From Reclinomonas americana ATCC 50394 (Eukaryota): 64,000 bases of DNA. Position 1 is the first letter of the stretch. Each line of letters begins with the position of its first letter. The stretch is from the NCBI GenBank assembly GCA_048213135.1, contig PS015097.1, positions 72,679 to 136,678 of the forward strand, given 5' to 3'. Below the pieces are notes generated by a model, which was not told where the DNA came from, ran no database searches, and saw nothing but the letters and a program-made list of their open reading frames with translations. Positions 67 through 62,600 of the stretch are shown here, one piece after another. The position numbers and the translations under genes are program-made.

Positions 67-1937
67 GATGCGTGGTTGATTTCAGAGTTGATTGTGGTGG
101 ACGGCACGCAGCGACTGACGGCGGCCGAGTCGCTGTGCCATCCGTTCTTCACGCATGCGTCGGTGGATCGCCTGCGACACAATGGTCTGTTGTTGGACCC
201 TGAGCATAAGGTTATTGCGCTCAGGCGGCACCTGGCCGTGGTGCGCGAGCGCAATGCGCCGATCTTTGGCATTGAGAGGTACACACATTTTCGTGTGCCA
301 GTGTTTGTCATCGATTCCTCCGCCCTCTCATTTCTCACCCTGTGTAATCAGTGTGTCGCTGCACATCAACATTGACGCGGTGGTGGATTCGGTGTTCCAG
401 TGGTTGGGTGAGCTGTTGGAGGATGGCTGGCGCATGCCGCTGGAGTTGCACATGTCGGGCGGCAGCGACTATGTCAACAATCTGTTCCGTGTGTACAATT
501 CGGTGCGTTGCAGGCGTCGTTCTCGCCGGCGGTGCATGTTCCCCTTATTCCTTGTGCTGCAGTTCTTCCATCGCATCGGCTCCCACCGTCTTTTCGAGAG
601 CCGCACCGCCTCCAAGGACATGTGTCTGCCGGCTGCTGACGGTGGTGGTGGGAACTTGTCAAGGTACGAGCTTCTCGGCAAGATCATCATCAAGTGCTTG
701 CTCGACGGCCGCCTGCTGCCGGTGCGCACCTTTGCGCCCTCGTTGTACAAGTACATTGCGGGCATGCCGGTGCGTTTGCGTGCACATGTGCATATGTGTG
801 CGTTCTCTGCAGTGTCTCACGTTGGCGTGAACAGGTCACCTTCCACGATCTGGAGCTCTTTGACCCACCGCTTGCCGGTCGCCTCAAGCAACTGTTGGCG
901 AACCCGGAACCGGAGTCCGAGAACATGACGTTTGCCATGTGTGGTGCGTGTGCATGATTATCATCAACACTTTGTGTGTGTTGTGTGTGCGCGTGCTAAA
1001 ACCGGCTGCCGTATCGACGCAGGTGGAGACGCCAGCACGCGCGTGACGAATGAGAACAAGGGTGTGTTTGTGGAGCGTGTTGTGCAGCACACACTCGTAG
1101 ACTCGCGCAAGCAGGCGCTGGAGGCGTTGAAGCGAGGTCTGTTCGTCGTCGTCTTTGTTGAGTGTGGCGGCACCGCGCACATCGCTCACTGGTTGGCACG
1201 TGCGTTGCAGGCATGGTGTGGTGTGGCAATCTGATTGAGATCGGCGACAACTTGAGTCTGCTTGGCTGTCGCGACCTCATGCAGTTCTGCTGCGGCCACT
1301 TGGAGCTGACCACTGATCGTATCATCAGCGCTTTCAACATGCAGATGGTGGAGGACACTTCCTTTGTAGGTCTGTCAAGCGGCGTCGTGTCATGTCATGC
1401 AGCCTCTTTCCTTTGCTCACTCTCTCTGCAATCACACGTCCACAGAGCGACTCCGCGAGACGCTGGAGCAGTGGGAGCGTGAGCACCCGCAGCGTCTGTC
1501 GGCGTTCATGGAGTATGCCACTGGCTTGCCATGTTGCGTGTGTTTGAGCTTTACTTGCAGCATGGTGACGTTTCGTTGCTGACTCCTCCGCACACAGCTG
1601 TGCCATTCGAGGGCATGTACAATGTCAACTCACCAAATCTCGAGCCCGATTCCGCACTGGTGCGTCTCGACGACGAGGTGTCGGTCGACTTGGCACCCCG
1701 GTGGAGCACGCACGAGTTGGTGCTGTCACCAACGAGCCAGCTGCTCTCGTGCGACACCACCGCCGCGTTTGGTGAGCGCCTGTTCCAGTTGATGGCCGAG
1801 CAGGGGCAGCGGCCGGCAGACGATGGCGGTGAGTGATGTTTGTACACGGGAAGTGTGGTGCGGTGATCATTGTGTGCTCACACGGTTGTTTGCGTGCAGC
1901 TGACGGCGGTGACCAGCTGTTCGAGGAGGATTATTAG
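67..1937 (+). CDS. 3' part of a protein kinase-HECT-like fusion protein (5' truncated by window edge, multi-exon)
   Basis: First exon LISELIVVDGTQRLTAAESLCHPFF resembles kinase subdomain XI. Later exons give HECT motifs (YELLGKIIIKCLLDGRLLP, SLYKYIAG|VTFHDLELFDP, VTNENKGVFV, RLSAFMEYATG). Stop TAG at 1935-1937. Confidence 0.75.
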
Positions 1938-2009
1938 AGCCTTCTGCATTGTAGTAAATTATACCCGCACGGGCTTCGTATGATTGCTTTTAGTTCATTT
2001 TGCTACGCA

Positions 2010-5000
2010 TTACAGCACACCAGTCTGATGCAAGACGCTGCGGATTAGGAATAGGCGATTCTTTTGCTCTTCCAGCAGCCGACCACTGCACGCACGCACG
2101 TAGACGCATACGTTGAGCGACACGCAACAAAACATACACACACGAGTGAGAGAGACACAGAGAGACGCAACGTCTGATTGGACACGTCGAGTACGTCCCT
2201 TACCAACGACGGATACATGTCGTATCTCTGCGCAGCGGGCTTTGCAGGTAGCCTGCCGCAGCTCTCCTCCAACTGCGCCACCGTCTCGGCCATCTCGTCC
2301 ACCTCCGTGAGCTTCAAGCGGAGAAACTCGGCCAGCTCCTCCTCCGCCTCACTCAGCGATGGCGACATGTTCAACAGCACCTGTCACAGACGAAAAGGAT
2401 GAGACGATGATGCTCTCGTGTGTTGCGTTGTTTCGCGCACCGTCACCAGACTCTTGAGACGACCCTCCAAGTGTCTCTGGCGTTCCACAATGGCCATTTG
2501 TCGCGCACGCAGTTCGCCGACCTTGAATTCTTCCGCCGCAGCGGCCTCCTGCAGCTCGGCCACCACTTGTCGAATGCGATCTCGGCGTCCGTGTACACGG
2601 TCGTTGCTATTCACCAGACTGTGAGCGGATGCTTGCACACGTCGAGCGAGATACACGCGCGTTCTCACTCACAATCGCTCAATCACGTGCTCCACCTTGG
2701 CCACGGCCGCCACAACGCGCTCCACCGACGAGCACGCCTCGGTGAATTGCGTCAGCCGACGGACTTCTCGCACATCAGACGACGCATCCGCCTGCGCGCA
2801 CAGTCACCACTCAGCTGCAGTACACGCACACACAAATACACCATCATGTATACACACACCGCTGCTGCCGATGTGAAACTCGTGGCCACCCCTCGCAACG
2901 TCATCAGCTGCTTGGTGACCTCGTCCAGCGACGCATGCAGCACAGGGTCGATATCGCCACCTGTGTACAACCAAAAAAAGAAGAGACTCAGCGCTTCGCT
3001 CACCGAAAACACAAAATACAATGCCTTTGGTCGCACCTGCCGCGTCGGCGGCACCTCCCACTGGTATCTCGCGCACAGGTGGCGCTTTGACACGATCCAG
3101 TGATGCGCACCACACAGCCGCCGAGTCGAGCACCAGCAGCATAAAGTACCCGAGGAAAGGGTCACTGAGTGCGGCACTCTGGAGGACGCCGGGTACTCGT
3201 TCACCAGCAGCCGACGTGTTGACGGGTGGTGGCCTGATGTACTCGACAGCGGTCTCCACCGCCGACGGTGCCAGGTCGCCGCCCTGAGAAACGGATGAGT
3301 CCATGACAATCGGAGAACGCGCACGATAGAGCATAGCGCAACTTGATCGGCTGCAATCTGCTGCACCCACTGCAAGCGATACTGCGTTACAAGGCCCTGC
3401 ACACTCGTGTACACGATCTCGCGGAACAGCGGGTCCAACAGGAGCGACACGGAATTGGCCTGCGGAGTGCACACTAAGCAGCAATCTATAATACACGAAA
3501 ATGCGCAACAACGAACCGGTGGTAATGTGGCCAATCGTCGACCAAGAGTCTCCACGCGCACTAATTCCGACGTCTGCACGTACACACACCGTCAACAATG
3601 GCAGTTACTCACACACTCTCTATGATGTACACACGCGCACCGGTTCTGACGTGAACCACCACGGTTGGACGCCACCGAACAGCCAAAACGCATCCGCCGA
3701 TCCGTCAGCAAACGCCTGAACAATCGCCAAATCTTGCGACTTGCCCGTAGCAATCACACGCAAATCGACAACGGCACGTCCTTCTGCAATCGTGGTCGGG
3801 TCCACTGGTTTTGCGGTCCCATCGCGTTCATCCTCCGGCTACGTCGCCATCAGCACCAGGAGAGGGGGGAGGGGGAAGGAGACAAAAGAGACACGCACCA
3901 CCGGGAATGGACCGATACAGCGCAGTCGATGCGGACTGAACACGTCTGACGTGGGCAGCCGCGTCACGAAAACGTCCTCCGCATCGGGTGCAGACGCCGA
4001 GCTATCCAGCCTGCGAGCGACGTGCGATCAAATGAGTCGGACGGCACGCCACAAAAGCAGCTGCATCTGCTGAGGATGAAGAACAAGGCACGAAACAGAA
4101 ATGATGGTGAGACACCAATGTCCTGCAGGAACCGCCTGATCTCTGCTGCATCCGCCGAGAACTCGCGAAGCATCTCCCTCACGCCATTCAACGGAAGCTC
4201 TCTGCGGGCGCGTGTGAGGGTGTGACGGGCGAGGCGAGGCGACGATATGAGTGCACAGCACGCACACTCCCAGCGGAACCACCGGACACAGAGCGTACAG
4301 ACTGCCGCTCCGAGTGCTGTAGAAGATGGTGAATGCGTCCCACGAGAACGCCTCTGCAGCGAGGAAGGGTGGGTGAGTGAGTAGGCGCACGTCAGTGAAC
4401 GTGTGGTGCAGAGCAGAGGACGCACCCGAGTCGGCCGACCAGTCCACCACGGCGAACCGCACCACGGGATCGAGGGGATCGGGAAAGTACAAGTGCAGCG
4501 AGTACTCGGGTGCTTCGGGGTTGTTGACATTCACAACGCTGCAGACACACACAATTAGCACCATTGGTTGCGAGGCAAAGTTGGGCGACGACGACGACGA
4601 CGCAACTGCAGCATGTTGTCCGACAAGAACACAATCACGTGCTCCTCCGACGCCGGATGCCACTCGACTTGCACCAGTTTTAGCCTCTCGTCGCGCAAGA
4701 ACATGTTCTCCAGCAGCAGACCACTCGAACTGCACGACGAGTCAGCGAGAGAGATCACGATCATCTTTTTCCATTGGCGTGCATTCCTCTCACCTCACAC
4801 TCAGCGTGGACCCTGCACTGCGTCGCTGATCGACGTGAATAAGCTCACACTGCACATCGTCGGCGGCCAGCAGCCACGTGGCGGCGGCGTTGAAGAGTAG
4901 GCGCGACGGCGCAAAACCACCCACAGTTTCCACCGATGTCTTGACTCGCCCTCTGCTCGACGACGAGGGCGCAGAGGCCGCCACCTGCAGCTGCCGCATG

Positions 5001-5388: not shown

Positions 5389-5459
5389 TGGCGCGCCTTC
5401 ACCAGATTAGAGGGACGTTGGACATTGAGGACAACTTGCATGTCTCTACGTAAGGCGTT

Positions 5460-7179
5460 TCATTTTTTGACACTACTGCTGCTGTTGTGCTCCTTGTGCT
5501 GTGCGGCTAGGCCGAGAACGATGGCGTGGCGGAAGCCCGTGGATACATCGTCGATCAGCGACATGTCAAAGTCGGCGGCGACGTCGCGCGGTTGCTCAAA
5601 GCCACCGCCGAGCATGATCCACCGACCGCTCTCGGTGCGAACGGTGGTGGTCAGGTGACCGCAGCGAATGTAATTCACGCGTTCGCCGCCCCACAGCTGC
5701 TCCGCTGGCAACAGCACCGGGTCGACAAAATCGGCGTCGACGCCGGCGGTGGCCTGGCCGAGCTGCAGATGCCGGTTCAGGCCCCAGCCGTAGACGCGGC
5801 CAGTGTCTGGTGATGCGAGCGACGGTCAGCACACACCCCACAGCAGCAGCAGCAGCAGCATCGCTCCACCAACGCACCTGTCAGCGCCACGCAGTGGTAC
5901 ATGCCCGAGGAGACGGCGACGAAGCGGATGTTGCTCTGTGCGACCCCGTCTGCTTTCTCGCGCGGCTCGAGTTGCCGAGGCGACAACTGGTCACGCCACT
6001 GTTTTGACGATGGATCCCTGGTGTTGCTCTGTCGCTTGCCCCACACGAACAGGTCGCCATCGGCTAGCCGCTCATCGCCGTGAGCATGACTTTTTTCGCG
6101 TCTCCAACTTCGACAGAGGGCAGCGTAACGCAACTGGAGAGGGCCACCGTGTGACCAAAGCCGCAGTGCACATCGGCGGCCTCCACGCGCTGACTTCCCG
6201 CGGCGGAGGGATTGCGAACCACACCGCCGGCCAGCGGCTGCGCCCCGCCTGCCACTGGCGGTGTCGACTGCCTCTGCGCCACCAGATGCACCTCCTGCGG
6301 TGCACTGGCAAACAGCGAGTCGAACGTGCCCACACCCAGCTGACCGCGCGATCCTCGACCCCACGAAAACACACGCCCGTCAGCGCACACACACGCCACG
6401 TGCGTGAAGCCGAGCGAGACGGTCTTGACCGGCGCCGGCAACGATGAGACCTTGTGGAACGTGTCGGGCAGTGGATTCGAGTCGCCCGTGGCACACTGCG
6501 CGACGGGTGAGCGAGCAGGAAACAGCAAGAGGGGAGGAGCAAAGCAGCGCCGACCTGTCCCATGTAATTCTCGCCGCACATGTACAACGAGTTGTCTTCG
6601 CTCACGGCCGCCGTAAGCGCACACCCGGTCGTCACCGATCGGAACTTGACCTCAGCAGGGAACATGCGCACCGGCACCATCGACTCGATGCCTCTACGCA
6701 GCAGGAAAGCAATGAGAAGGCCATGGAGTGCGATCGAGACAGCGCATCCATTGCCATCGCAACTTTGAGGCTCCCAGCCAGTTAAAGAGGCGCATGAGGA
6801 ACGGGTACTTGTCGGCCATGGTCACCACTGTCACTGTGCGTCGCAGATCGGTCAGGCGGCCCCAGGCCAGCACCATACCATCGCCAGTCAGCACTGCCGA
6901 GTGTGCCCTGCGGAAATGATGCATTCAGCGTCGAGACAAGCAAGGCAGAGAGAGTGTGAGAGTGTGGGAGAGTGAGAGAGGACCATCCTGCAGACACAGC
7001 ACGCACTGGCGTGTGTGCCAGCGACTTGACGAGCGCAGGCGTTGCGTGGTGAGCAAGATCGCCGTGCCCAAGTGCTCCCAGTGAGCTGCACGTATACAGT
7101 GAGCGCAGAAGCAAGAGGGAAGAGGAGGAGGCAACACACGCAACCCCACGCCCAGTGTGTACACGCGCGACAGAAGCAT
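5460..7179 (-). CDS. RCC1-repeat protein
   Basis: Repeated RCC1 blades: GALGHGD...VSAGWAHSAVLTGDGMVLAWG, LGFTHVACVCADGRVFSWGRGSRGQLG, HCGFGHTVAL, CGHLTT, STGFRHAIVL. Confidence 0.85.
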
Positions 7180-7259
7180 GCCAGAATGTCCTGCAAATCT
7201 TCTCTGTCACTCACTCTTATCTCTCACGCTCGTCACTCTCCGACGCAGCAGCTGTGCGG

Positions 7260-10200
7260 ATGAAGTGGTCAGTGCCTGCGTCAACAGCCGCTGGAGGGCC
7301 CTCTGAGCGACAGGCGTCACGCGGTTGTGTGGTTGCGTAAGAGACAATCCCTTGTTGTGCACACTTGCACACTTGCACACACACACTCTCTCTCGCACAC
7401 ACACGGAGCGCGCAGTAGCATACATCCTCGAGAAACACTCACTTTTCACGTTTTGCAGCAACAAAACACGCTGTATGTGCACGGTGGCAACAATGGATCT
7501 GTGTGGTTCGGCGATGTGTACGCACTGGATGGAGGTGCGTGCGCGAGTGATCGTCCTTCTCTCTCTGCGTGTCCTCTCTCATGCGCGTGCATGCATACTG
7601 TGTTCCGCGGATGTATTTTTCTCTCTTGCAACAGAGTCGCTGACTTGGTCGCGAGTGGTCGACGCCGACGGTTCCACTCCGCCTCCGCCACGTGCGTGGC
7701 ACACGTTGACGGCGTGCCCCGATGGCCGCCGCCTCTTCATGTTTGGTGGACGCGACGAGTCGAGCTGGTTCAACGACATGTTCTACTTTGATGTCGGTTC
7801 GGTGGTGGCCGATCGCGTTCCTCCAGTGTGGTCGTTGCTTACACTCGCTGCTGCAGTCACCAAGACGTGGATTCAGAGTGGCTGGTTCGGTCCGTTGCCT
7901 TCGGCACGAGGCTGGCACACGTGCTCGTTGATGGTCAGCGAGACGCCTGGTGTGGCGCCGCGCATGATTGTGTTTGGTGGCTTCAGTGCCGGCTTCTCGA
8001 ACGAGGTGTTTGTGCTGGATCTCGTCACGTCGACGTGGACGGTGCCGGTCACCAGCGGAACGCCACCGGAGCCGCGCGGCAATCATGCGGCTGCTGTGTG
8101 TGGCTCGTGTCTGTACATTATCGGCGGTACCAATGGCGATCAGGACTTTATGGATGTGTTTTGTTTGGATACCGGTGCGTGATGGTGATGATAAGAAGGA
8201 GAGCGAGCACGGTCTCTCACTGTGTGGGTGCAGCTACGTGGGCGTGGACGCAGATTGAGGTCTCCGGCAACGCTCCCGAGCCTCGTCACTCGCACTCGGT
8301 GACGTGCATCTCCAAATGGGAGTGCATTCTGTTCGGTGGCCAGTCTGGTGGCGACACTTGCTTTGCCGATACGCACCTGTTCAACTTTCGTTGCGCGATG
8401 AAGAGATGTGGAGAATGGTGTGTCAGTGCGTGCTCGTCTGCTCACACGACGAAATGCGTGACGTGCAGGCACTCGCGCCTGGACGCCCATCACGCTCACT
8501 GGTACGCCACCCGATGCCAGACACTCGCACGTGGCTGGTTTCCTTGAGCCCTGGCATCGGCACGTGGTGACGTGCGGTTGCGGTGATCACGACTTCCTTC
8601 GCGATACGTTTACGTTGAAAACTCGTTGCGTGCACGCACGGAGAACGGTTGATGACGTGCGCTCGTGGCACTCATTGTGTGATTGTGTACGTCTTGTAGT
8701 GATCGATGCTGCCTCACCACCGCCACCGATTTCGGTCAAGAGACGGTGCGTCGGGTGAACAGTGTGCTTCCCTTCTTGTGTCTCACCCACACACGCACCT
8801 CGTTCACAGCGGATCGGACGGAGCGAGCGCCGCGGCCAGTCCCATTCAGCAGCAGCTGAAAGAGAAGCTGCTGGAGCGCGCTGTCGAGGCACGCGAGAAG
8901 GCCGAGAGCGAGCTGGAGCGAGAGCATTTGCGACGCCTGGAGGCCGAAGGTGTGAACATGACAGTGCTCGACTCGTTTCGACTCGCTGAATTGACTTGCG
9001 CGCATTACAGTGGAAAAGGAGCGCATCGAAAGTGAATTGATGAGGCTGCGCAAGCAGGTGGAGAAACAGGGACCACTGTCGCCGGTTGGCGAAGGTCTGT
9101 CGATTCTCCCCGCACGTTGCTGTTGACCGTTTCCTCTACACGCACACTGATACTTCTCCTCCGTCACAGATCCTGCTCGTCGAGTGCGTTTCCAGCTGGA
9201 GGGCGGTGCTGAGGAATCACCACGGCGACGCACTGCCGAGCTGGAGCGCTTGTTGGAGACCGTGAGTGCAGAGAAGGCGCGACTGGAGGCGTCGTCGGCT
9301 CAGCGCACACAGGAGCTCGAATCGCAGGGTACGAATCCGGTGCCACGCTTGCGTTTTTTCCCCCTGCGTAAGCGTTGCTGAATTGGCACGGTGTGTGCAG
9401 TGCGATTGCTGCAGGACAGTCTGCGACAGCGAGACGCCACTGTTGGCGATCTCGAGGGCCAACTGAAGCAGCGGGATGCGGCAGCTGCACAGGCGCAGAC
9501 ACTGCTGAAGCAACGCGACGGGCGTGTGAAGCAGCTGGAGACGCGAGTTGAGGAATTGGAGGTGGCATCCAAGGCAGCCGCAGCAGCAACTCCAGCTCCG
9601 GCGGCAGCGGTCAGTGCGCCTGCACTCACTGCAGCGCAGAATGGTCGCATGGAGGCCGAAATGCAAGAGCTCCGTGAACACATTGAGAATCTGGAGCACA
9701 TGCTGGCAGACTATGGTGAATTGCAGACGCTGATTGCATCGCTGGAGGCCGAGAAGGCACAATTGGAGAAGCGTGAAGCGGCACTGAAGACGGTGTGTTC
9801 GCCATGTTTTGCCCTCTTGTGAGACATCACCACATGCTGTTGTTCCTTACTGCTTTTTACAATCTCTTCAGCGCATTTCTACTCTGGAGAATGCAAATGT
9901 TGCGACGCTGTCGTGCTGCTTGCGCTGCGTAGCATCCATCTCATTCATATTGACCACGCAATGCAGAAGGACCAGAACTCATCGGCACGCGAGCTTGAGC
10001 GCCTGCGCTCGGAACTCGAGTACGCCGAGACGGAGGCCGCACAGCTGCGGGAGGACTTGCGTGAGGCACAACAGAACGCCCATTCGGGCGACGAAGACGA
10101 GATGGAGCGGATGCAGATGAATGTGATGGAGATGCGGCGCGAGCTGGAAGAGATTACGCAGGACCTCCACGATCGCACCGAGCAGCTGGAAGCGGTGACT

Positions 10201-30000: not shown

Positions 30001-30225
30001 AAACGACGACGAGCTAGGTGCGAGGAGAGTGCGGCTGAACTTGTGGAAGCGACTGTCGAGCGAGCTCAGCTCCAACATGCCGGTCTCGGCCAGCTGCCGC
30101 ACGTCCTCGGTGGACAGTGCCGCCGCATCCGTCGGCGTGAACAGCAGCGACGGAAGACGCGGGAGCTGGGCGGCAGTGGCCGGCGCCTGCAGCTTCTGCA
30201 GCTGCGCGAACAGAGCCGTCGACAT
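21004..30225 (-). CDS. UTP10: U3 snoRNA-associated protein 10 / HEATR1 (about 30 exons)
   Basis: N-terminus MSTALFAQLQKL...PSLLF, SPYFLLKSAHKVLEYLIRKYE|AHLYNVDALLACALPYHET. C-terminal BP28CT-like LLRLNEKRFQPIY and EFLVLLPDSISTLAELMDDDSAEVE...GEDLSQYFK*. Confidence 0.95.
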
Positions 30226-30227
30226 TG

Positions 30228-39400: not shown

Positions 39401-39573
39401 ACTAATTCACGCACACGCCCTCACCTCTGCAAACGCACGCAGGTCTCGGTGCATCGTCAGCGGCTGCAATCGATGTCGATGCGGCTCCACAGCCGGCCAT
39501 GAAGCGTGGCAGGACCGTGCCTGGCACGACCGCCGCCGATCTCGACCGTTCCACGCCGTGTAGCATCATGTAA
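36440..39573 (+). CDS. PARN: Poly(A)-specific ribonuclease PARN family (CAF1/DEDD nuclease, R3H-like insert, RRM-like domain), ending in CSIM
   Basis: MDVTNANFKE...FAALDMEMTGL, QVGICLF, AYPFNIY|VF, CQASS|MRFLRSCGYDFNKTISEG, VVVHNGALD, FFDTK, SAHEAGFDAYLTG. The DEDD acidic residues are present. Confidence 0.92.
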
Positions 39574-49959: not shown

Positions 49960-50015
49960 GTGAGTGAGCGTTGGACGGTGTGTGTGCTTGTGTGAGAGCC
50001 GCGATGATATCGATG

Positions 50016-50059: not shown

Positions 50060-50081
50060 TACATCGATTCACTCTTGCACA

Positions 50082-50297: not shown

Positions 50298-50303
50298 TAA
50301 GGA

Positions 50304-51333
50304 ATGTCGTCGTTCAAGGTCAGTGCGTGTGTTTCTTTGTGTGTGTGTGTTGTGCATGGACATGCCGTTGATCGCTCACTGCGCCTGCGCCGCTTGTCGT
50401 GTTCGTTGCTGTTGCTTTTCCCGATGTAGTCTGAGCTGTGCACATTCAGCGGTGAGTGTGTGTCGAGTTGTGACGATTTCCTTCTGGGTCGGGAGACTGA
50501 TTGAGATTGTGATTGTCTTTGTGTTGTTGATAGGCTTCCGCATCTGGCCGGGCCATGGCATCCGCTATGTGCCTTGCGTCAACATGCAGTCGACCAAGCT
50601 GGTGAGTTGATGCATCTCTGCGCTGTGTGTGTGCGTGTGTGGGCGGGCAGCACGGCATGGCCATGTGCATCTGCACCCTCGGCACGACAGCTCACTCTGT
50701 TGGGGGCTGTGTGCGGATGTGTAGGTGTACCCGTTCATCAACCACAAGTCCAAGTCGCTGTTCCACCAGCGCGTGAACCCGCGCAAGGTGCACTGGACGA
50801 TGTTCTACCGCCGCATGCACAAGAAGGGCTCCGTGGAGGAGTCGAAGAAGCGCCGCTCGAAGCGCGTCACCAAGGTCCGCCGTGAGATCACTGGTCTGAC
50901 CAAGGAGGACCTCAAGAAGAAGCGATCGGTCACCGAGCGCAAGAGCATCCGCGCCGCGACTGAGAAGTTTCGTGTTCTCCAGCGGATTGTAGATTGTCTT
51001 CCCTCTTCTTCTTCTCCTCCTCCCCTCTTCCTCTGTCTCTCTTCTGCTGCTCATTCTTCTCCTCCTTCTCTTCTTCCTCCTCCTCCTTCCGCGCCTTCTC
51101 CACCCTCTTCTTCTTCATTTTCTTCCGTCTTCTTCTTCTTCTCCAATACCGACGCATCTCGTTCCCTTGCTGTACACAGGCGCCAAAAGGACGAGCGCGA
51201 GAAGCGCAAGAAGGCCAAGGTTGCCCGCCCGACGGCAGCTGCGCAGTCTGGTCCTTCACGCTCTCAGACCAAGGCCGCCAACCGTGTTGCAGGCGCTCGC
51301 GCTCGCAACTCTGCTGGCAACGTCGGCCGCTAA
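50304..51333 (+). CDS. RPL24: 60S ribosomal protein L24 (eL24), 5 coding exons
   Basis: Spliced MSSFK|SELCTFSG|FRIWPGHGIRYVPCVNMQSTKL|VYPFINHKSKSLFHQRVNPRKVHWTMFYRRMHKKG... with a basic C-terminal tail. Confidence 0.97.
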
Positions 51334-52124: not shown

Positions 52125-55100
52125 ATGGCGCGCGTGACTTCTCATGTGATCGCCGTGGCGATCATCACCATTGTCGTCGTCCTCGTGGCGACGGCAACGC
52201 TCATCGCCGTGCCAGCGCACGCCGCGATGCAACTGCGTACGCGCTCCTTTGCGCCACGCGCCAACATGATGGGAGCGCTGGCCGATTCGGCCGCCGACTC
52301 GACAGCCACCATCGGTCTGCCGCCGTCGTGCGTGCGCAGCGGAACGTGCCGCGGAATTCTCTTTGAGGCCTCGCGACCGCGTTTGTTTGGTGCGCGCGCC
52401 ATGCACGCCCACGCACAGGACGTCTCCGACACCAGCACTTTCCAGGAGCAAGTCGACTTTTTCGAGAATGGCTTCGTGCCCGAGTGCCAGCATCACGCTG
52501 TGGAGTCGCTGCTGCATGTGGGACCGCATCTGTGTGGCGAGTGGTCGAACACCGAGCTCGCCGACCCCTTCACCGCCGCTTTCCGCCTGTCACTGCGCTT
52601 CTCGGTCGCCGACACGGTGGTCCCGCCCACTGAATTCCGTCTTCGTGTGGCTCCCGCCAGTGGTACCTGGCACGCTGTGCTTATCGACGGTGTCGTGCAA
52701 GTCGTGCGCTTTGTCGACTCGACAGACCCCAGTTGCGTTTTTTTCTTTGCTTGCCAAAGCCACCCCCGTCTCGTCTTGACGCTGATATCGCACAGTTCCG
52801 GTGGGCGCACTGAAGCCCGGCAACCACGTGGTGGAGGTGCTCGGTTTCGGTGCCATGTCACTGGAGTTCAGGATCGTCGAGGGCTACGACAACCCGTGGC
52901 TCGACGCGGGCCAGCTGGCCAGCTCGATCATCGGCACGCGTCCTCTCGCTCCCAAGTCTGTCTCCGCCCTGTCTGTCCCGCTCGGTCTCTCGTCGGCCTT
53001 CCACACGTTGGCCGGCTGCGCCTCGTCGGGTGACTGGTGAGTGATTTGTGTACTCTTGCAAGAGCACCACCACATGTACACCTAACCTTTTGTTCTGCAC
53101 GCAGCAACAATGGTGGTGACTGCATCAACGGCCAGTGCAACTGCTACCCGGGTATCGGTGGTCCGCAGTGCGCCGTTGCGTAGTGTTGTCTGTGTTGATG
53201 TGAGCGCGGCAACTGCGATTCTCACAAGTGTTATGCACAGTGCCGTCCAGTGGAGGTCCGCCCGCGTGCAGTTCGAGTCCCTGTCTCCGTCTTGTTTCAT
53301 CACATCGCCGTTTGTGTTTTTGCAGGTTTGCCGCGGTCGAGGTGTCTGTGGTCGAGTGGCTGGCGACTGCCAGTGCTTCATGCCGTTCTCTGGCTCTAAC
53401 TGCGAGTGCAATACGTGGACCGGAGAGGGCTGCGCACCGGCGGCAACCACCCCGACGACTCCCACTACTCCCACCACTCCTACTACCCCCACTACTCCTA
53501 CTACTCCCACTACTCCCACTACTCCGACGACTCCTACTACTCCAACGACTCCTACCACCCCGACCACTCCTACCACCCCGACAACGCCCGCCACTCCAGG
53601 AAAGTGCACATTCGATGGCACTTGCAACAGTGGTGCGTACCACAGAGTCAGGTCACGGCTGCCGACTTCTGCTTGCGTACTCACTTATGTCTCGCAGGTG
53701 GTGAATGTCAGGCGGACGGTAGCTGCAAGTGTTTCGGTGAGCTGCAACACACGTGCTCATTGTCTCTTCTGTGCATTGTGCTCACCGAATGTTGCGATGC
53801 AGCTGGTCTCGGCGGCCCTACTTGCCAGTGTCGTCCAGGTCAGATGGCGAGATGCATGTTCACGTGCTGAGTGCCAAGTTCTCACCCTTTGTGCTCTCTG
53901 CTTGCGTGATGCACTGCGCGCAACAGTCGAAGTGTGCAACGGGTCAGTTTGTCGCTCGAGCTTGCGTACACAAATGCACTCGTTCTCACTCCTTTTGTTC
54001 GATGGTTGTGCAGTCGTGGCACGTGCGATTCAGTGAGCGGCGCATGGCAAGTGTTTTGTTGGCTCTTCGTTCTTGATCGTTCTCATCGCCAACGCCTATC
54101 TGTGTCATTCCAGCGTCTGCTTCATGCCGTTCACCGGCTCTCGCTGCGAATGCAACTCGCGTTGCGTCATTTAACTGCACCTGCAGCAACGCACACTTGG
54201 TACATTTTTTGATCACAATCTTTGCAGAGAATGGTGTTGGTTGCACCAGCACCACTCCTACCACTCCCACTACGCCCACCACGCCCACCACTCCCACCAC
54301 GCCCACCACACCCACCACACCCACCACACCCACCACACCCACCACTCCGACGACCCCTTCCACACCGACAACTCCCACCACGCCCACCACTCCGACGACT
54401 CCCACCACTCCCACGTGCAACGCGGCGACCACTTGCAACGGTCACGGAACGTGCACGTCTACTGGTTCGTGGAAGCAGAGTCGATGGGGATCAACGGTGG
54501 CAATGCATCTCACCACGCTACTTCACAGGACTCTGCTCATGCTGGGCCAACTGGACTGGTCCGTCTTGCGCCGCCTGCAACACCAACTACTACGGATCGT
54601 CGTGCACGCAGTGCATTGCAGCCACCACATGCAATGGAGTTGCGAGACCAAAATCAACAGCGTGTCTGTGGATTTGAAAACTCACTGGCGATGCCGCCAT
54701 AGCACGGCACATGCGACACCAACACCGGTAGCTGCAAGTGCGATGCTGCGTGGGCCGGCAGCACCGACTGCTCCACGTGCGCCTCGGGATTCCACGGCTC
54801 GTCGTGCTCGCCGTGCCAGTGCGGAGCCAACGGTATCTGCCGCACTGACGGCTCTTGCGCTTGCCTCAACGGCTACACGGGAACGCTGGTGAGTTTTCCC
54901 CTCCAATTGTACTCGACTCACTAAAATCAGGTGTCCACTCATTACCTTGTGTAGTGCGGCACCCCGCCACCGCCAGCCAGTGTGGGAACATGCACATGCG
55001 TCCACGGCTCGTGTGTCAGTGGCCAAGTTGAGTCACTAACTTACTTTATGATCCTATGCTTGCCATGATACTTATCGCTGTTCGCTGTCACCGGCAGTGC

Positions 55101-57325
55101 TACTGCGATCTGGGCTGGTACGGAACCAATTGCGACAAGATGTGCGGCTCCACGTCGTGCACTGGTGGCTGCCCGTCGACCACTCGCGTGGTTCCCACAA
55201 CTGGCAGTGGAACTCGCACTCAGTGGACTCTTCAGCGCTGCGGTACCCCCATGGTCATTCGCGGCGCCGTCGGAACCGATCAACTGGACTTGTTCCGTCG
55301 GTACGTTGCCTCACAGTTGGACAGACTCGCTACCATTTTCTGTACTAACCCGCTGCACAACAGTGCTGGTGGCAACACTATCCGTCTGTACGGTATGTGT
55401 ACAAAGTGTGCTCTTGATTTCACACGCTCCGGTCTCACGCACGACAATACAGATCCTGATCAGCTGGTCAACAATCCCTCTCTGCTCGAGACGTGCCGCA
55501 AACTGGGACTGCAAGGTACACATGTTTGAATCGAGAGTCCTCGCCACTCTTCGTGAATCTCACGTCTTCCTCCTCGCGGGACGCCAGTGATTGTTGGTCT
55601 CAAGGTGCAAGCCGAGAACCAGCAGGAGCGCTGGCCTGGTGAGAATCACCACTGCCTGTGCTTTCCAGTCGACGAATGCGCTCATCATACATGCCGACAA
55701 CTACAGGCTTTGTGTATGGCACCGGCTCCAGCTACGAGCAGGCGCAGTTGGACTTTGCGTTGAACGTTGTGCGCACCTACAAGCTGCATCCGTCCATTCT
55801 CGCCTGGCAGGTCGGCAATGAGGCCGAGTTGAACACGTCGCCCAACGACTACTGGCGCGTCTTCTCCGCCATCAACAAGATGGCGGTTGCCGTGCGCGCT
55901 GAGGACCCGAACCACTTCACCTCGACCTCCATTGCGTCTCTGTTGCGTGCAGCACCGTCTCATGCTGCGCCATGTTGTCCAGCTGGCGCTGACTGTCGTC
56001 GTTCCACGCATACAAAGCAACCCGGCCAGCAAGGCTGCTCTTGTGCAGCAGTTCGCCCCGGCCATTGACGTTCTCGGCGTCAACGCATTCCAGTCGGCCC
56101 CGTACATTCCTGGCGATCTCGATCAGCAAGGTTACAGCAAGGTGCGATACACATTGTGTGCCGACGCAATAATTCAAGCACAAGATTGTTGTTGCTCACT
56201 TTGTTCTCCTCATGCAGGCCTGGATGATTACCGGTACAAATCTCTGTGCATACTGTCCTTCAGGGTCTACAGTGATACTTATTTGTGTGTCGCAGAGTTC
56301 GGAACACTTGGATGGTGGGGTGAGACGTGGACGACCTACTGGGGTCGCCCGACTGAGCCATCATCTCGCTACAAGGCCGAATGGTCTTATTCGACACAGA
56401 CAAAGGTGCGTACGTGGGGGAGCACACGAGGTTTCCTTCAGGTGTCACATGTGATGTACTCACACTGTTGTCGATCGACAGGCACGCGCCGATCCTCGCA
56501 ACAGTGCGTGCAAAATCAATCTCATTGCAGACATCCTCAGCATTCATGCTCACTTTTCTACTGCAGTTGGCACCCACATCTTTGCTTGGAGCACGTACAC
56601 TGGTAAGCACACACTGACTGTCTTTTCTTGCGCAATGCTCTCATTCTCACCACGCTTGCATTGCAGATGCAACTGTGACGTGGTACTCGTGAGTAAGCGT
56701 CTGCTAATCAGGCCGCCTTTCTGGAGTTATCATTACTGACGCTAGTTTACAGACTGTTTGCCGGCAGCGACATCGCGCCTGGCATGCCCAAGACGCAGAC
56801 TGTCGACGCCATGCGCGCCCTGTGGTTCACCGAGGCCGGAATCGACTGGAACATCGAGCCATGGTGCGTCGTCATCGTGCCAACTGCGCCGCACTCTGTC
56901 AGCGTTCTCACCAAGTTCCAACACAGGCGCACGAGCCCGATCATGGCCAACACTCCGGTGATTTCAGCCGCGGCCAACAACCGCGTCGGCGGTTGCGTTC
57001 ACCATTCGCTGCATTTGCTCAGTGCAAGTGAGTCTGCTTACGCAGCGTCGCGCACACAGTCTCGTCGCAGCAGCAAGCGCAGGTCATCGTGGATAGCTTT
57101 GATGCGGCTTGCGGACCTCTGTCGTATGTGTGGGAGATTCGTGCCGATGCATCCAACGGCACGGTCGTGGTCCCGCGCAACCAGTTCACCCAGGTTTCGT
57201 CCGACATGAACCAACAGACGGTGTCGTGGACCGCACCGCAGTGGGGTGGCCAGTGGCGACTCTACGTTTACGTGCTCGACAAGTGCAACGGTGTCGGCAC
57301 GGCCAACGTCATTTTCGTGACGTAA
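52125..57325 (+). CDS. Secreted modular glycoside hydrolase: signal peptide, EGF-like repeats, two Pro-Thr-Thr stalks, clan GH-A TIM barrel (GH158/GH2-TIM-like), Ig-like C-terminal domain
   Basis: Hydrophobic N-terminus and Cys-rich EGF repeats. Catalytic region VIRGAVG...AGGNTIRLY...YKLHPSILAWQVGNE...DPNHFTST...DVLGVN...WMITEFG...WGRPTEPSS. C-terminus YVWEI...TAP...WRLYVYVLD...TANVIF. Confidence 0.8.
53446..53597 (+). repeat. Coding 9-bp degenerate tandem repeat, (Pro-Thr-Thr)n linker 1
   Basis: CCN ACN ACN units with variation only at third codon positions. Confidence 0.9.
54251..54415 (+). repeat. Coding 9-bp degenerate tandem repeat, (Pro-Thr-Thr)n linker 2
   Basis: CCN ACN ACN units in frame with the flanking EGF exons. 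Confidence 0.9.
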
Positions 57326-57407
57326 GGCACACACAGTCGGCCAAAGAGAAAAGATGTGCGCGAGCCATGGCGCCGCGCGTTAGTGAACACAGATCAACAG
57401 ACATTGT

Positions 57408-59506
57408 TCAATTGTTCATCACACCGCAGTGCCATGACTTTTGTGCAAATGTCGACCCCGAAGACGCGTCGGCGCCTGTGTCACTGTCCACAGCGGCCTG
57501 GCCTCCATACCACTTGGCCAGCACTTGCAGTGTCGGCTGCCACATTACACATACAACACGGGTCAGCAGTCAACGACAATCGAGCCAAGCGGGCAACGCA
57601 AAAACCTTGTTTTGTGGCGTAAAGAGGTTGGTGAGGTCCGAAGCCGAGCCAGCCTCTGCGTTTACGTTATGAGAGACGAGACCACAGGAGGGCAAAATGA
57701 ATGGATTGCGATGATTCATGTACCCGGGTCGGTCCACCATGCCCACCTGCAACCCATGTCAGTGTTTCATCGCACCAGACAAAGGTGATATGCATTTCTC
57801 TCACCAATGCACGCCCTTGAACCACGAAGGGAACGGGACCGCCAGAGCCTGGAACAGGGCCTCGTAGTAGCGCACTTGCAGCGGGAAGTTGGTGGGTGCA
57901 CTCATGTCAAACTTGTTCGGCTGGATACCGAGAGGGGGAGTGAGCAACACTGCGCAGTGATGCAAGAAGCTGCAAGTCAACAAAACCTGCTTGTTTGCTC
58001 GATCCTGCGACGGCATGCCCACTGCAGAATACAAATCAGCACATTCTTGAACCTCTTGCACATCAGTGAATACATACCCTCGGTGAAGATGAGAGGCTTG
58101 TTGTACTTGTTGACCAGTGTCTTCATCAACTGTGTGCCACGTGGTCAATTCTCACGCGATCTGCTGCGAGTACAAATATCATGATGGCATTGGTAACTGG
58201 AATGTGTGGAGCCCAGCCGGCAATCATTTGCTCGAGTGTCGGGTCGTCGTATTCGGGAGCAATGGGAAAGTACGCATCGATACCTTTGCACATTCTGGTT
58301 AGCAGAGGGCAAGTAGAACGTAACGACGACGAGTGCTGCAGTACCAATCATGTCCAATCGATCCCACCAAGTAATGTTCAGTGGCGAGTAGTGCACGCCA
58401 AACAGGTTGTCGCCTGTGCCTCACAGGGTGAGTGTTGGAAGTAGAAGAGACGCACACTCCTCCACCAACTTGGATCGCACCCCAGAAGTTTGCTGCGTAC
58501 GTCAGCGTGCCGTGGAAACGCGAGCGCACATCCGCAATGATCGGCAGCCACTTGTCGGCATGCGCACGATCGGCAGCAATCAGTTCTGTGCCGAGCGCAA
58601 ACTGCGCAACACACGGAATCGGTGTAAGCAATCATCATGACGCTCCTGCCTTTTCACCATCCCGACCTGCTCGACATGCAGGCGCTGCGCCAGATCCGCA
58701 AAGTGCGCAATGAACTTGGCGTAGCTGGCAAACCACGCCGTCCACTGCGCCTCGGTAAAGTCCATGCCAATGTCACCACGCCACAGGCCTGCCGCCCACT
58801 CTGCCGGGTCCAGCAAGTCCACGTGCGGCTAGATCGCGCACGCAGTGAGCAAGTCGCCACGACGACAAAAAGGCAGCACATGCGTGTGCGTGCACCTTGA
58901 GCATGACCTTCAGGCCGTGCACCTCACGAGCCTGCCGAATGGCGTACTCCAGCTCCACATCAGTTGCAGTGCGCTTCCCCGTCGGGTCCGGCATGATTAC
59001 GGTCGAGTTGACACTTTGCTGGAACCACGTGACGATGATCGATCTGATGGTGAGACGAAGAAGAAGAAGAAGAGTGAGACTAGACAGGCGGTGTGAGAAC
59101 GGGCGTGACAGAGTGTGACGAAACACGTAGTTGGCGCCCTGTGTGAGAGGAGACAAGTGCAATGAGGGGAGCTATCGAGAGGCGACCACAAGCACAGAGG
59201 ATGGCGCAACAGTCTTGGCATATGCAGAGAAGCTCGCATCAGCTGCTGGCTCGTTGAATCGCACATACGGGCAGTACTGCGTGCGCGTGTGTGTGCAAGT
59301 GAGCCACATACCTCCCTCGCCTCGTCTCATGCACACACCTTGCCATCTGCGTACGACATGCTCTTCTGAAAATCACTTGGCAACAGCAGATGCGGTTGTT
59401 CCGACGAGACAAGCAGGCTGTCTGCGCTCTCGGCGACTGATGCATTCACCAGCAGCAACAGCAGACTGCAGCTGATGCAGATGAACAGCGTGTGAGGGCG
59501 TTGCAT
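57408..59506 (-). CDS. Secreted GH113-like glycoside hydrolase (putative beta-mannanase)
   Basis: Signal peptide MQRPHTLFICISCSLLLLLVNASVA, then GANYVSIIVTWFQ, GLKVMLK|PHVDL, LWRGDIG, WFASYAKFI, FALGTEL, TLTYAANFW, WWDRLDMIG|IDAYFP, QVRYYEALF, WFKGVHWW. Confidence 0.85.
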
Positions 59507-59682
59507 CGCGATCGTCTGTGAGTGTCGGTGATGACAAAGCGCACGGGACGATGGTGATCGAAGTTGTCTGCCGTCGTCTCTTTCTTTTGCTTAGCGGTGC
59601 TGCACATTTATTCACAGAGATTGCCATCATGTTTCTTTTTCTGTTTCCTTATCATGCGCCCCCTTTCCCCTCCACGCCGCCA

Positions 59683-62600
59683 TCAATCAATCTCAAACAT
59701 GACCGTGTTGGTGAGTCGAATGGTTGAGCCGGTGGCTGTGGTTGCGGGCGCTGCCGCCGCTGCGGGCGCTGCTGCTGCTGCTGCTGCTGCCACGTGCGCT
59801 GGTGGTCTGGCGGGCGTAGAGACGCGCGAACCGTGCTCGTCGGAGGCCATTGCATTCGGCGCAAAGTGCACATGTGAAGTGTGCGACGATGGCGAGGAAC
59901 CCGGCGCCGACGGGTGATGCATGGCGGACTGAGCTGGGACCGGCGGCAGTGGCACATGAGTGTGGGTGCCGCTGTGGCTCGCGTGTCCCTCCTCCTCCTC
60001 TTCGTCGTCGTCGTCGGGCGGTGCAGCCGACTCCACAAAGCCACCACGCACCCCCGGAGACAGACTCGCGCCCTCGGCCTCCAGCGGATACGGGTCGAAG
60101 CGGATGTGCGACTGCTCCGGTACTCGCGTCGGCGTGGAGATGCGCTTGCCGTGCTCGTCAGAGGCCACATCCTCCGGGAAGTGCACGTGGTGAGGCGACT
60201 GCTGATGCTGCGCGGCTGGCGGCGAGTGTGATCCGTGTGGAGAACGGCGCAGCATGGCTGCCGCCGACGGCGACGGCACATCCGTGATTGTCACAGAGGC
60301 GACCGCAGCCGCACGCGGGAAAGGCGACGATGACGACGACGACGACGACTCGCCACTGGTCGGTGCATCGAGGGGAGTCGCTTCTGGCTCGCCGTCGGCC
60401 AGCGACAGCGGCGTCATGGCCTCCTCATCGACAACGACCGTGCCGTCGGCAAACTTGACGCGGCGCGGAGAACGCGGTGATCCAGGTGATCGCACGCGCT
60501 TCTCGTGCACCAGCGCCGGCGGACTAGTCGGCGGCAAGGGCCCAGCAGCGGCCACCACGGCCGGCACTGCCGGCGACTCACTCTTCTGATGCTGCTTCTG
60601 TCTTATCTGCTCCTCCTGCTCCTGCTTCGCCCTCCGCTTCTGCTCCGCCTCCTCCTCGTCTTGCTCTGGTGGCTCCTGGAAAGGCACCGGAGTCGGTTTT
60701 GGCGGCGGAATCACCGGCAGCGTCACAGTGAGTACGCGCTTGGCCTTGACGAATTGCGCACGGGCACTGTCCTCGTCCACCGGATGCGGCAAGGCCACTT
60801 CCAGTTTGTAGATGCCCTGCGCGTCATGCAATGACACCGAGCGGTTCTCAATCTCCAAGTCCACGTTCTCCATTGATTCCTATGCGAGCGGCGATTGAGG
60901 GAAAGGGTCAACACACACACGTAGGAGGTCGAGCAAGCGTACCAGCTCCGGCAGTTCCACTCGCAACACCAGTTCCCGTGGGCACGACGGTGGCAACACG
61001 GCACCGGCCGGCAGGTGCACAAAGGAGCCCATATCAAACGAGCCTCGCTCTGTCAATGTGTGCTTGGGGGCGGCGGGGCCCTTGGGCGGTGCCGGGATGT
61101 CGGCCAGCACTTGCACGGCAGGTCGCTTGCCGGCGGGCACTCTGGGTTGTGCGTCCACAGTAAGACGCGCGGGTGTGGAAGAGGAGAGTGCGGGGAACAC
61201 AAGAGAGCGCAACTGATCGGACGAGCCCGGCAAGCGGAGAGTGGATTGCCGCTCGGCGCGCTCCCAGGGTTCCGAAAAGTCTGATGACGAGGACGATGCG
61301 CCGGAGGCGGGGGCAGCGACAGGGGGCTTGGCGGCTGTGAGTGGAGGAGGAGGAGGAGAAGGAGGAGTCGTGAGGGATGGGGAAGGAGAAATCGCAGAGA
61401 AGACTCACGCACCACGCGGAGCTGCCGATGCAGCCGGTGGCGGTGGTGCTGCGCTGGCGGCGGCACGCTTGGGCGCAGCAGAAGCCGCCGACGACGACGA
61501 CGATGATGATGAAGAAGTAGAGGAAGACGAAGACGGACCAGCCGAACCACTCGGCGGCGTATCCTTGCTACGAATGGCCTGTGCTGCGGGCTTGCCCTTG
61601 GATTTCATTTTGGGCAGGCTGAATTCTATAAGTGCGCACCGAGTCAGCAGCAGCAGAAACAGCGTGGACACGAGGCGGCACACGCAACGATTGGCAATCT
61701 TCTCGGTGCACTTGTCACGCAAATGCGCAATGGCAATCTCCACCAGCATGGTCTTGTACGCCTTGCTCACAGCCGCTTGTCGCGTCTGCTCACGCGAAAA
61801 TGAGGACGGGAGTATAGACAGGGACAGCAGGAGACGGCGACACCGCACGCACCGCATCGGGATGGAACACAATGTCGTAGACGGCACACTCGTTGTCCTG
61901 CTTATCGCGCTCCATGCGCAGGGCTCCCAGACTCAGCGGAATGCGCCAGTTGTTGCCACCTGACACACGCCAGTTAGCGGCAGGTGGAGAAAGCACAGAG
62001 CGAGAGAGAGAGCTCCGAAAGAAAAAAACCTGGAGCGGGAATGGCCTCGGGCTTGTCGACCTTGTCACTGGAGCACACATTGACAAAGACCTTGATCGGC
62101 TCGTCGGTGCGCTTTACCTTGAACACGAACTCCTGCGCTCGACAACAAGGGACGTGTGAGAAGAGGGAGGGAGGGAGGGAGGGAGAGAAGAGAGAGACTG
62201 AGAGAGAGACTGAGAGAGAGAGAGAGGAGAAGAGAGAGAGACTGAGAGAGAGAGAGAGTGAGATGAGAGAAGAGAGAGAGAATAGGAGAGACTGGGAGAG
62301 GGAGAAGAGAAGAGAGAGAGACTGAGAGAGACTGAGAGAGAGGGAGAAGAGAAGAGAGAGAGAGAGACTGAGAGAGAGAGGGAGAAGAGAAGAGAGAAAG
62401 ATGAGAGAAGAGAGAGAGAGAATAGGAGAGACAAGTCTGAAATGCACAAGTCAGAGACTGACCGGCGTCGGCAGAATGATTTGCGCAGTCGCCGACTTGC
62501 CCTGCTCAGCCTCCACTTGCCGAATGTACTGCTCATACTCCTGCACACACACACGAACACACACAATGAGCACACACACAGAGAGACAAGAGAGATGCGA

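Follow-up and report, generated by a model that had tools for sequence, protein, structure and literature searches.

A frequent second 5' splice-site layout, GTTNNGY after a non-G exon base, in GT-AG introns of Reclinomonas americana and its possible reading by shifted U1 pairing

Introns in a 64,000-nucleotide (nt) stretch of DNA from Reclinomonas americana ATCC 50394 (assembly GCA_048213135.1, contig PS015097.1, positions 72,679 to 136,678; hereafter the window) start with donors of two layouts. Class 1 is G/GTNNG(Y), in which the slash marks the cut, and class 2 is GTTNNG(Y), mostly after an exon base other than G. Taken together we read these as major-type GT-AG introns with a common second donor layout, N/GUUNNGY, which is most likely recognized by a one-nucleotide-shifted pairing with U1 small nuclear RNA (snRNA), a reading that we favour with moderate confidence. 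We are confident that class-2 donors are real. All counts and tests described here concern the one 64-kb window, and the label 'genome-wide' that came with the original prediction of the class goes beyond that scope. The window is GC-rich (56-63%) and gene-dense, its genes being split by numerous very short introns.

The original prediction listed GTTNNG hexamers at 50 positions, and at all 50 the hexamer named is present on the strand given. In a signal test a word passed if CTNAY occurred 50-95 nt downstream and the first AG after it was a YAG. On both strands 44 of the 97 GTTGCG occurrences pass, as compared to 12.7% of random positions (binomial P=2.8e-15), and eight hexamers with a single mismatch, used as controls, pass in 7-20%. 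Sorted by the seventh base, the test is passed by 25/36 GTTGCGT, 14/35 GTTGCGC and 5/26 GTTGCG[AG]. Hence, GTTGCG marks intron 5' ends, with T or C preferred at the seventh position. Cruder statistics were uninformative: the number of GTTGCG words is unremarkable against Markov expectation (97 vs 82), a count of GT hexamers upstream of candidate branch-plus-acceptor combinations gave too diluted an enrichment to be of use, and a listing of every frame-consistent donor for each acceptor on the two strands contained too much noise.

The cut was located by means of a frame test, in which separate calls of the coding frame in the 60-120 nt upstream of the motif and downstream of the acceptor were compared with the intron length, using a codon model without any donor information. 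With the cut before the G of GTTGCG and W=60, 28 of 34 callable sites fit while the other residue classes hold 0 and 6 (P=5.7e-9); wider flanks gave 27/32 (W=90) and 30/39 (W=120). G/GT[ACG]NG, the positive control, fits at 61/82 sites, and the negative control [ACT]/GT[ACG]NG is flat (54/57/54). The test determines the cut modulo 3, and a movement of both boundaries together is countered only by the GT-AG rule.

At a few junctions the cut is exact at the protein level. The upstream introns of the gene for ribosomal protein eL24 have the donors G/GTCAGT, G/GTGAGT and G/GTGAGT, and the fourth intron is class 2. The spliced product of 166 amino acids (aa) is colinear, without indel, with P0020, a protein derived from expressed sequence tags (ESTs) and labelled Reclinomonas americana in EukProt, to which it is identical at 159/166 residues. 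This match fits the Discoba origin presumed in the original prediction. Removal of the fourth intron gives ...RAATEK^RQKDEREKRKK... (the caret marks the exon junction), identical to the EST-derived sequence. The second case is a PARN-like gene that served as benchmark. Its 16 curated introns, 5 of class 2, 10 with G at -1 and 1 with T/GTGCGT, are all needed for a single open reading frame (ORF) of 695 codons, which aligns from residue 1 with the distant homologues P0001 and P0011 (full HMMER search). When the gene is read through by tblastn, both homologues show a gap of exactly 20 residues at the 60-nt intron 38311-38370, and the alignment with PDB PARN picks up again after intron 38458..38514. 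With the three in-frame class-2 introns all retained, the bit score drops against 6/6 homologues. All curated introns of the two genes are GT...AG. Exact joining of exons is thus given by an EST-derived protein for one class-2 intron and by homologue alignment for four, the rest being placed by reading frame.

The same two genes gave some further observations. A class-2 donor considered at 36932 was rejected, as homology puts the cut at G/GTGTGT at 36928. The PARN introns 37182-37242 and 38193-38254 have the donors G/GTACTC and G/GTCTCT, which lack G at +5/+6 and belong to neither class, and are demanded by frame and homology. Several introns are stop-free with a length that is a multiple of three, and six-frame ORFs run through them (38239-39402, 50725-51333); the former stretch has four class-2 introns within one ORF of 388 codons.

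Frequencies were obtained with a Viterbi gene finder that has a strand-asymmetrically seeded codon model and allows GT-AG introns only, its introns hence being GT-AG by construction. In a GT-only model GTTGCG is the commonest donor hexamer (14/115). A self-trained model, with an intron-side hexamer table that lacks exon positions, yields 158 introns, namely 72 G/GTNNG, 37 GTTNNG and 49 others, many of which are near-misses. A class-aware model, which is circular with regard to motif preference and was used solely for counting, gives 185-215 introns depending on the penalty and recovers 14-16 of the 16 curated PARN introns. At the middle setting the 215 introns consist of 125 G/GTNNG, 23 other G/GT, 11 non-G-preceded GTNNG, 48+2 GTTNNG and 6 others, and their lengths modulo 3 are flat (69/71/75). 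Class 2 accounts for 50/215 introns (23%), in line with the initial manual estimate of about 50 in roughly 200, and 17 of 18 gene models contain it intermixed with normal donors. The 50 modelled class-2 donors are GTTGCG (40), GTTTCG (3), GTTACG, GTTGTG and GTTGAG (2 each) and GTTCTG (1).

The 50 cited sites were also inspected one by one in a local test that required [CT]TNA[CT] and a first YAG within 40 nt, 45-130 nt from the donor. An acceptor was found for 45, 36 of which are frame-consistent and 9 of which received a different frame call, and the other 5 are without a strict acceptor. Among the frame disagreements there are several false negatives: the splice at 8390, for instance, joins two Kelch-like repeats in frame. 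The class-aware model recovered 44/50, missing 7332, 19715, 39039, 54639, 55027 and 59124 (minus strand). Among these, 39039 is backed by homology and 19715 by the local test; 7332, 54639 and 59124 (minus strand) are unsupported and 55027 is weak.

The anatomy of both classes was compared at 86 class-1 and 44 class-2 frame-consistent sites. Base counts are A 33, C 29, T 15, G 9 at class-1 -2 and A 18, T 16, C 6, G 4 at class-2 -1; G 44, A 15, C 14, T 13 at class-1 +3 and G 33, C 6, T 4, A 1 at class-2 +4; C 39, T 26, A 16, G 5 at class-1 +4 and C 31, T 10, A 3 at class-2 +5; and T 50, C 20, A 8, G 8 at class-1 +6 and T 27, C 11, A 4, G 2 at class-2 +7. The latter correspond to T 61% and C 25% in class 2 versus T 58% and C 23% in class 1. 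Position p+1 of class 2 shares the preference order of class-1 position p, such that +2 to +7 of class 2 reproduce the canonical +1 to +6 preferences, and class 2 is the stricter of the two at both variable positions. This equivalence, together with the requirement for T at +3 described below, bears out the proposal of a constant G-[G/T]-T-N-N-G in which the cut has moved by one base. Median intron lengths are 67 nt for class 1 and 68 nt for class 2. The base found most often at class-1 +4 (39/86) and class-2 +5 (31/44) is C, a mismatch with the canonical U1 5' end that hints at either an altered U1 or strong GC pressure. The idea of class-2 introns as copies of a mobile introner was rejected on inspection by eye, since they have only the signals in common.

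Which layout is found is coupled to the last exon base. For this coupling test the frame test was run on all GT dinucleotides followed by an intron-like 3' end, and counts are given as fitting/other/other. GT[ACG]NG yields 73/20/12 after G and 79/105/96 after [ACT], GTTNG yields 11/0/3 after G and 10/18/11 after [ACT], and GTTNNG yields 40/9/18 after [ACT] and 4/1/2 after G. When not preceded by G, GTTNNG gives 24/4/4 with T, 10/2/6 with C and 6/3/8 with a purine at the seventh position (GTTNNGT, GTTNNGC and GTTNNGR), and the corresponding GTANNGY, GTCNNGY and GTGNNGY are without frame signal (1/8/4, 9/15/12 and 10/19/19). GTNNGT likewise has no frame signal when preceded by a base other than G (39/44/40) versus 50/9/6 for G/GTNNGT. 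Donors that follow an exon G are thus GTNNGY, free at +3, whereas after any other base a signal is detectable for GTTNNGY only, and T at +3 is obligatory. A few non-G-preceded GTGCGT and GTGAGT donors do exist, such as T/GTGCGT at 37598, which is demanded by the PARN reading frame.

The GT-only model has 33 GTT donors, in which G at +6 occurs in 18/23 after non-G vs 1/10 after G (Fisher P=4e-4), and overall in 19/33 vs 24.5% of all GTT sites (P=5e-5). Both the association of GTTNNG with a non-G at -1 and the enrichment of G at +6 that the original prediction entailed are therefore found. An exon G is present at -1 in 125/136 modelled GTNNG donors, and this requirement is much stronger than is known for most eukaryotes. 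Class 2 has G at -1 in 4/44 frame-consistent sites and in 2/50 modelled introns. Compared with the local baseline of 52/316, the depletion to 4/44 is not significant (P=0.23), and the correct statement is that class 2 lacks the strong preference for G at -1 seen in class 1. Intron phases are 45/27/14 in class 1 and 16/12/16 in class 2, the latter being relatively enriched in phase 2 (P=0.03), which puts -1 at the second codon position. For about 10 of the 16 phase-0 class-2 introns the preceding codon has a synonym that ends in G (hand count from a codon list), and class 2 is therefore more than a last resort. The suggestion that class 2 serves where a -1 G is unavailable from the exon holds up in part: it agrees with the phase-2 enrichment, but not with the available G-ending synonyms or the non-significant depletion.

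In the reading that we favour, the spliceosome would read one heptamer, G-K-U-N-N-G-Y, in both classes, the first G of which would be the last exon base in class 1 (G/GUNNGY) and the first intron base in class 2. The U1 5' end would pair with class-2 sites displaced by one nucleotide: G+1 would fill the slot of exon G-1, U+2 would be mismatched opposite the C that usually pairs with G+1, U+3 would lie in the U+2 slot, and G+6 and Y+7 would occupy the slots of G+5 and Y+6. U6, U5 and Prp8 would later fix the scissile bond at the sole GU, one base upstream of its class-1 place. We infer both the involvement of U1 and the register, and give shifted pairing by a single normal U1 about an even chance of being the mechanism. 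If the intron's G+1 occupies the -1 slot of U1, a weak exon G-1 (4/44 vs 125/136) is what one would expect. For the class-2 consensus the minimum-energy duplex with the canonical U1 5' end is predicted to be the one shifted by +1 (-1.5 kcal/mol).

A number of results weigh against shifted pairing. Predicted duplexes with canonical U1 average -1.6 kcal/mol in class 2 and -6.7 kcal/mol in class 1, and with that U1 end the +1 offset is the main register at just 19/44 class-2 sites. A non-G-preceded GUGCGU is predicted to bind more strongly (-3.8 vs -1.5 kcal/mol) yet is far rarer, and therefore simple U1 thermodynamics fails to explain the pattern. The C favoured at class-1 +4 and class-2 +5 is unpairable by canonical U1. 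The frame test is compatible with an equal shift of both boundaries, which would yield identical mRNA at the eL24 junction and at two PARN junctions. Finally, class 2 is tighter at NN, with GC at +4/+5 in 25/44 sites vs 20/86 at the equivalent class-1 positions and GTTGCG in 40/50 modelled donors, for which a dedicated RNA is equally possible. Either the U1 5' end is altered in this lineage, or there is a second U1 for class 2, or other factors have a heavy weight. A U1 end complementary to GGUGCGU would fit all preferences.

In the case of a dedicated RNA, class 2 would be read by a paralogue of U1 whose 5' end complements GUUGCGU and differs at one position from that of a U1 reading GGUGCGU; there would be two U1 species, both in the canonical register, and no shift. 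The dominance of a single word in class 2 and the very weak predicted binding of canonical U1 fit this explanation, as does the unpairable C, given which the U1 end may be altered anyway. The preference orders at the flanking positions are identical in both classes, however, which moreover stand side by side in the same genes with equal intron length and the same 3' signals, and we consider such a variant unlikely. A normal U1 could also pair with G+1 and one U while U+2 or U+3 is bulged, so that G+6 and Y+7 pair as G+5 and Y+6. This gives as many base pairs as the shifted register, and UU at +2/+3 is precisely what a bulged U+2 requires. A bulged +3 should accept any base, yet there is frame signal with T alone, which favours the shift. 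With U+2 bulged, the U1 partner of exon G-1 would be free and the -1 G should persist, which the 4/44 and 2/50 contradict, and the lost preference again favours the shift. In human sites with a bulge at +2/+3 the exon G-1 is still paired with U1 and hence favoured. We therefore rate the bulged register as improbable here, although it has been validated in human cells, with 68 of 201,541 human donors predicted to use it (PMC4856993, as far as its Table 3 goes).

It might also be that class 2 is defined mainly without U1 pairing and that U6, U5 or a protein such as U1C, LUC7 or Prp8 reads GUU...G directly. The very weak U1 duplexes are compatible with this, and U1 energies leave unexplained why non-G-preceded GTNNGT is rare and GTTNNGT common. 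But the displaced motif retains all class-1 preferences, including the Y after the conserved G, for which one reader with two registers is the simplest account, and direct reading appears distinctly improbable. The least probable explanation, already largely refuted, is that GTT donors are artefacts, caused by wrongly placed exon ends in manual or ab initio models, and that the true donors are ordinary. The gene models are indeed ab initio, the last one being class-aware, and 9/50 cited sites fail the local frame call while 5 have no strict acceptor. However, the signal and frame tests are independent of gene models, the donor-agnostic model finds class 2 as well, and five junctions are confirmed by the EST-derived eL24 protein and the PARN homologues.

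Shifted pairing can be extended, tentatively, to a more general rule. One U1 would read G-x-U-N-N-G-Y, possibly with an end complementary to GGUGCGU, and recognition and cleavage would be uncoupled as the normal genome-wide mode, with the cut behind the first G for x = G and in front of that G for x = U. If this doubtful extension were true, the exon-side G of the classical donor consensus would be dispensable as an exon base, and a quarter of intron positions would be freed from constraint on the last exon nucleotide.

The coordinates of the class-2 introns and of the two genes used for protein-level evidence are listed in Table 1. The HEATR1/UTP10-like gene therein has U3snoRNP10 and BP28CT domains and lies on the minus strand at 21004-30225 (Pfam on single exons). 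Other single-exon Pfam matches are to an RCC1-repeat gene, the PARN-like CAF1 ribonuclease, an RRM, a PIH1-like protein, a leucine-rich repeat (LRR) protein and eL24. Pfam searches with eight single exons that flank class-2 junctions matched eL24 only, so abutting domain coordinates could not be used, and word-index homology searches with a HEATR1-like and an LRR exon gave no matches. Rfam detected no family in the 64-kb window at gathering thresholds, and in E-value mode found only sub-threshold miRNA-like hairpin matches and no snRNA.

Table 1. Class-2 introns and genes with protein-level evidence. Frame-consistent, supported by the local frame test; class-aware, found by the class-aware gene model; added, absent from the original prediction.
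Feature	Length (nt)	Positions	Strand	Gene or remark	Evidence
Ribosomal protein eL24 gene		50304..51333	+	four introns: three G/GT donors, one class 2	Pfam Ribosomal_L24e
A/GTTTCGT	213	50967..51179	+	eL24; CT-rich, in frame, stop-free	junction exact in P0020
PARN-like (CAF1 family) gene		36441..39573	+	benchmark	Pfam CAF1, PDB PARN
C/GTTGCGT	64	37336..37399	+	PARN-like; variable alignment region	needed for 695-codon ORF
A/GTTGCGC	60	38311..38370	+	PARN-like; in frame, stop-free	spliced junction gap-free; retention lowers score, 6/6 homologues
A/GTTGCGT	57	38458..38514	+	PARN-like; in frame, stop-free	gap-free vs P0001; retention lowers score, 5/6 homologues
T/GTTGCGC	69	38690..38758	+	PARN-like; in frame, stop-free	gap-free; retention lowers score, 4/6 homologues
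C/GTTGCGT	81	39039..39119	+	PARN-like; missed by class-aware model	frame-consistent; WETD^TQCIVEVS gap-free vs P0001, P0011
T/GTTGCGT	65	1533..1597	+	HECT-like gene; spliced ...YATGLP^SVPFEGM	frame-consistent; gene models
C/GTTGCGT	134	2038..2171	-	candidate, weak	class-aware alone; no strict acceptor
A/GTTGCGC	59	3284..3342	-		frame-consistent; class-aware
T/GTTTCGT	86	4011..4096	-	added	gene models
A/GTTGCGT	68	4539..4606	-		frame-consistent; class-aware
A/GTTGCGT	71	6064..6134	-	RCC1-like gene; added	gene models
A/GTTGCGA	70	6694..6763	-		frame-consistent, high margins; class-aware
GTTGCGT after exon G	59	7086..7144	-		frame-consistent; class-aware
C/GTTGCGC	79	8390..8468	+	Kelch-like repeats joined in frame	class-aware; local frame disagreed
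C/GTTGCGT	75	8625..8699	+		class-aware; local frame disagreed
T/GTTGCGA	68	9899..9966	+		class-aware; local frame disagreed
T/GTTGCGT	60	10228..10287	+		frame-consistent; class-aware
T/GTTACGT	70	10348..10417	+		frame-consistent; class-aware
A/GTTGTGT	70	12379..12448	+		frame-consistent; class-aware
A/GTTGCGT	68	12822..12889	+		frame-consistent; class-aware
C/GTTGCGT	70	14870..14939	+		frame-consistent; class-aware
A/GTTGCGC	78	15851..15928	+		class-aware; acceptor other than in local test
T/GTTGCGT	64	16337..16400	+		frame-consistent; class-aware
C/GTTGCGT	74	22787..22860	-	HEATR1/UTP10-like gene	frame-consistent; class-aware
T/GTTGCGC	77	23046..23122	-	HEATR1/UTP10-like gene	frame-consistent; class-aware
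A/GTTGCGC	62	23731..23792	-		gene models; no acceptor by strict branch rule
C/GTTGCGT	74	23876..23949	-		gene models; low-margin local frame call
A/GTTGAGT	67	24016..24082	-		frame-consistent; class-aware
A/GTTCTGT	79	25690..25768	-		frame-consistent; class-aware
A/GTTGCGT	66	26797..26862	-		frame-consistent; class-aware
A/GTTGCGC	62	29560..29621	-		frame-consistent; class-aware
A/GTTGCGT	68	29718..29785	-		frame-consistent; class-aware
T/GTTGAGC	73	32149..32221	+	candidate; added	class-aware alone
T/GTTGCGT	59	32433..32491	+		frame-consistent; class-aware
A/GTTGTGT	66	34593..34658	+	added	gene models
A/GTTGCGC	62	35565..35626	+		frame-consistent; class-aware
C/GTTGCGT	77	41910..41986	-		frame-consistent; class-aware
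A/GTTTCGT	71	42253..42323	-		frame-consistent; class-aware
T/GTTGCGT	62	42575..42636	-		frame-consistent; class-aware
T/GTTGCGT	65	46178..46242	+	added	gene models
A/GTTGCGC	88	48443..48530	-	ankyrin-repeat gene	class-aware; acceptor other than in local test
A/GTTGCGT	64	52732..52795	+		frame-consistent; class-aware
C/GTTGCGT	66	53175..53240	+		frame-consistent, low margins; class-aware
C/GTTGCGT	67	54161..54227	+		frame-consistent, low margin; class-aware
T/GTTGCGT	76	55942..56017	+		class-aware; no strict acceptor
GTTGCGT after exon G	68	56992..57059	+		gene models; acceptor other than in local test
C/GTTACGT	195	58130..58324	-	candidate, weak; atypical length; added	gene models alone
T/GTTGCGC	72	59139..59210	-		frame-consistent, low margin; class-aware
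A/GTTGCGC	72	61142..61213	-	PIH1-like gene	frame-consistent; class-aware
C/GTTGCGT	63	61626..61688	-	PIH1-like gene	frame-consistent; class-aware

Some further features of the window were recorded. Approximately 150 nt at 49437-49613 have sub-threshold matches to many unrelated miRNA-precursor models on both strands and therefore form a long hairpin or palindrome, located immediately 5' to where the ankyrin-repeat gene (47636-49420, minus strand) starts. Comparable hairpin-like matches on both strands occur at 63170-63319, adjoining a run of 20 N at 63310-63329 that is presumably an assembly gap. The C-terminal exon of the HECT-like gene (1600-1827), which has no Pfam match, reads ...WSTHELVLSP... 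at what we take to be the place of the catalytic cysteine motif of HECT ligases; judged by this stretch the domain may be divergent or inactive.

Searches of the full-text literature, from which subscription journals and supplements are excluded, found no description of a GTT donor class, no account of Reclinomonas nuclear splice signals or U1 and no text that pairs 'Reclinomonas' with 'U1 snRNA'. Our verdict is that class 2 is probably new at this frequency, non-canonical U1 registers being already known in humans as exceptions. In a free-living protist it would provide a natural system for the question of how the cleavage site is fixed after U1 leaves, and it would bear on the slack of the U6/U5 active site between GU and the paired +5/+6 region. 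It is also relevant to how splice signals have evolved in Discoba, a deep branch of the eukaryotes of which few nuclear genomes have been studied. For the annotation of jakobid genomes it has practical weight: a gene finder trained on a single donor matrix will wrongly place, or overlook, roughly one in four donors of this genome, and such errors would pass unnoticed because many class-2 introns are in frame and stop-free.

Several known systems resemble class 2 in part. U12-type introns, with the donor [AG]TATCCTT, likewise form a second donor class beside the major one in the same genes. That donor occurs in 0/50 modelled class-2 donors, all of which begin with GTT, and unlike U12-type introns class 2 has the branch and acceptor signals and the length of class 1. 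Bulge registers of human 5' splice sites have reportedly been described by Roca and co-workers in 2012. The human sites with a bulge at +2/+3 or at +3 are, like class 2, of GUU type with one extra nucleotide between GU and the paired +5/+6-type positions. In class 2, however, the evidence opposes both a free +3 bulge and a retained -1 G preference. The two human registers are moreover predicted for 68 and 51 of 201,541 donors, respectively (Tan et al. 2016, PMC4856993, the figures being those of its Table 3), against about one intron in four here. Ostreococcus lucimarinus also has two donor consensus types in one genome, GTGCGTG outside chromosome 2 and GTRNGT on chromosome 2, according to the part of Irimia and Roy 2008 (PMC2483917) that we draw on, and GTGCGTG is the commonest class-1 donor here. 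Those sets, as that part presents them, are split by chromosome and differ in strength in the same register, whereas the classes described here are interleaved within genes and displaced by one base.

The closest parallel is formed by the human donors with a +1 shifted register, the existence of which was a premise of the original prediction and is stated in the portion of PMC4856993 used here, which attributes them to Roca and Krainer 2009 (its ref. 10). As in class 2, these donors start with GU and are cut at that GU while the remaining motif and U1 pairs are displaced by one nucleotide. By the same portion of that article they are rare and atypical, validated non-canonical registers together making up 1.5% of human donors, whereas class 2 comprises some 23% of introns and occurs in nearly every gene of the window. 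Class 2 needs U+3, whereas the human model site in Table 2 of the article has C+3. The displaced core is GCG(U) here and AAGU in the human sites, and unlike these, class 2 goes with the absence of the exon G-1.

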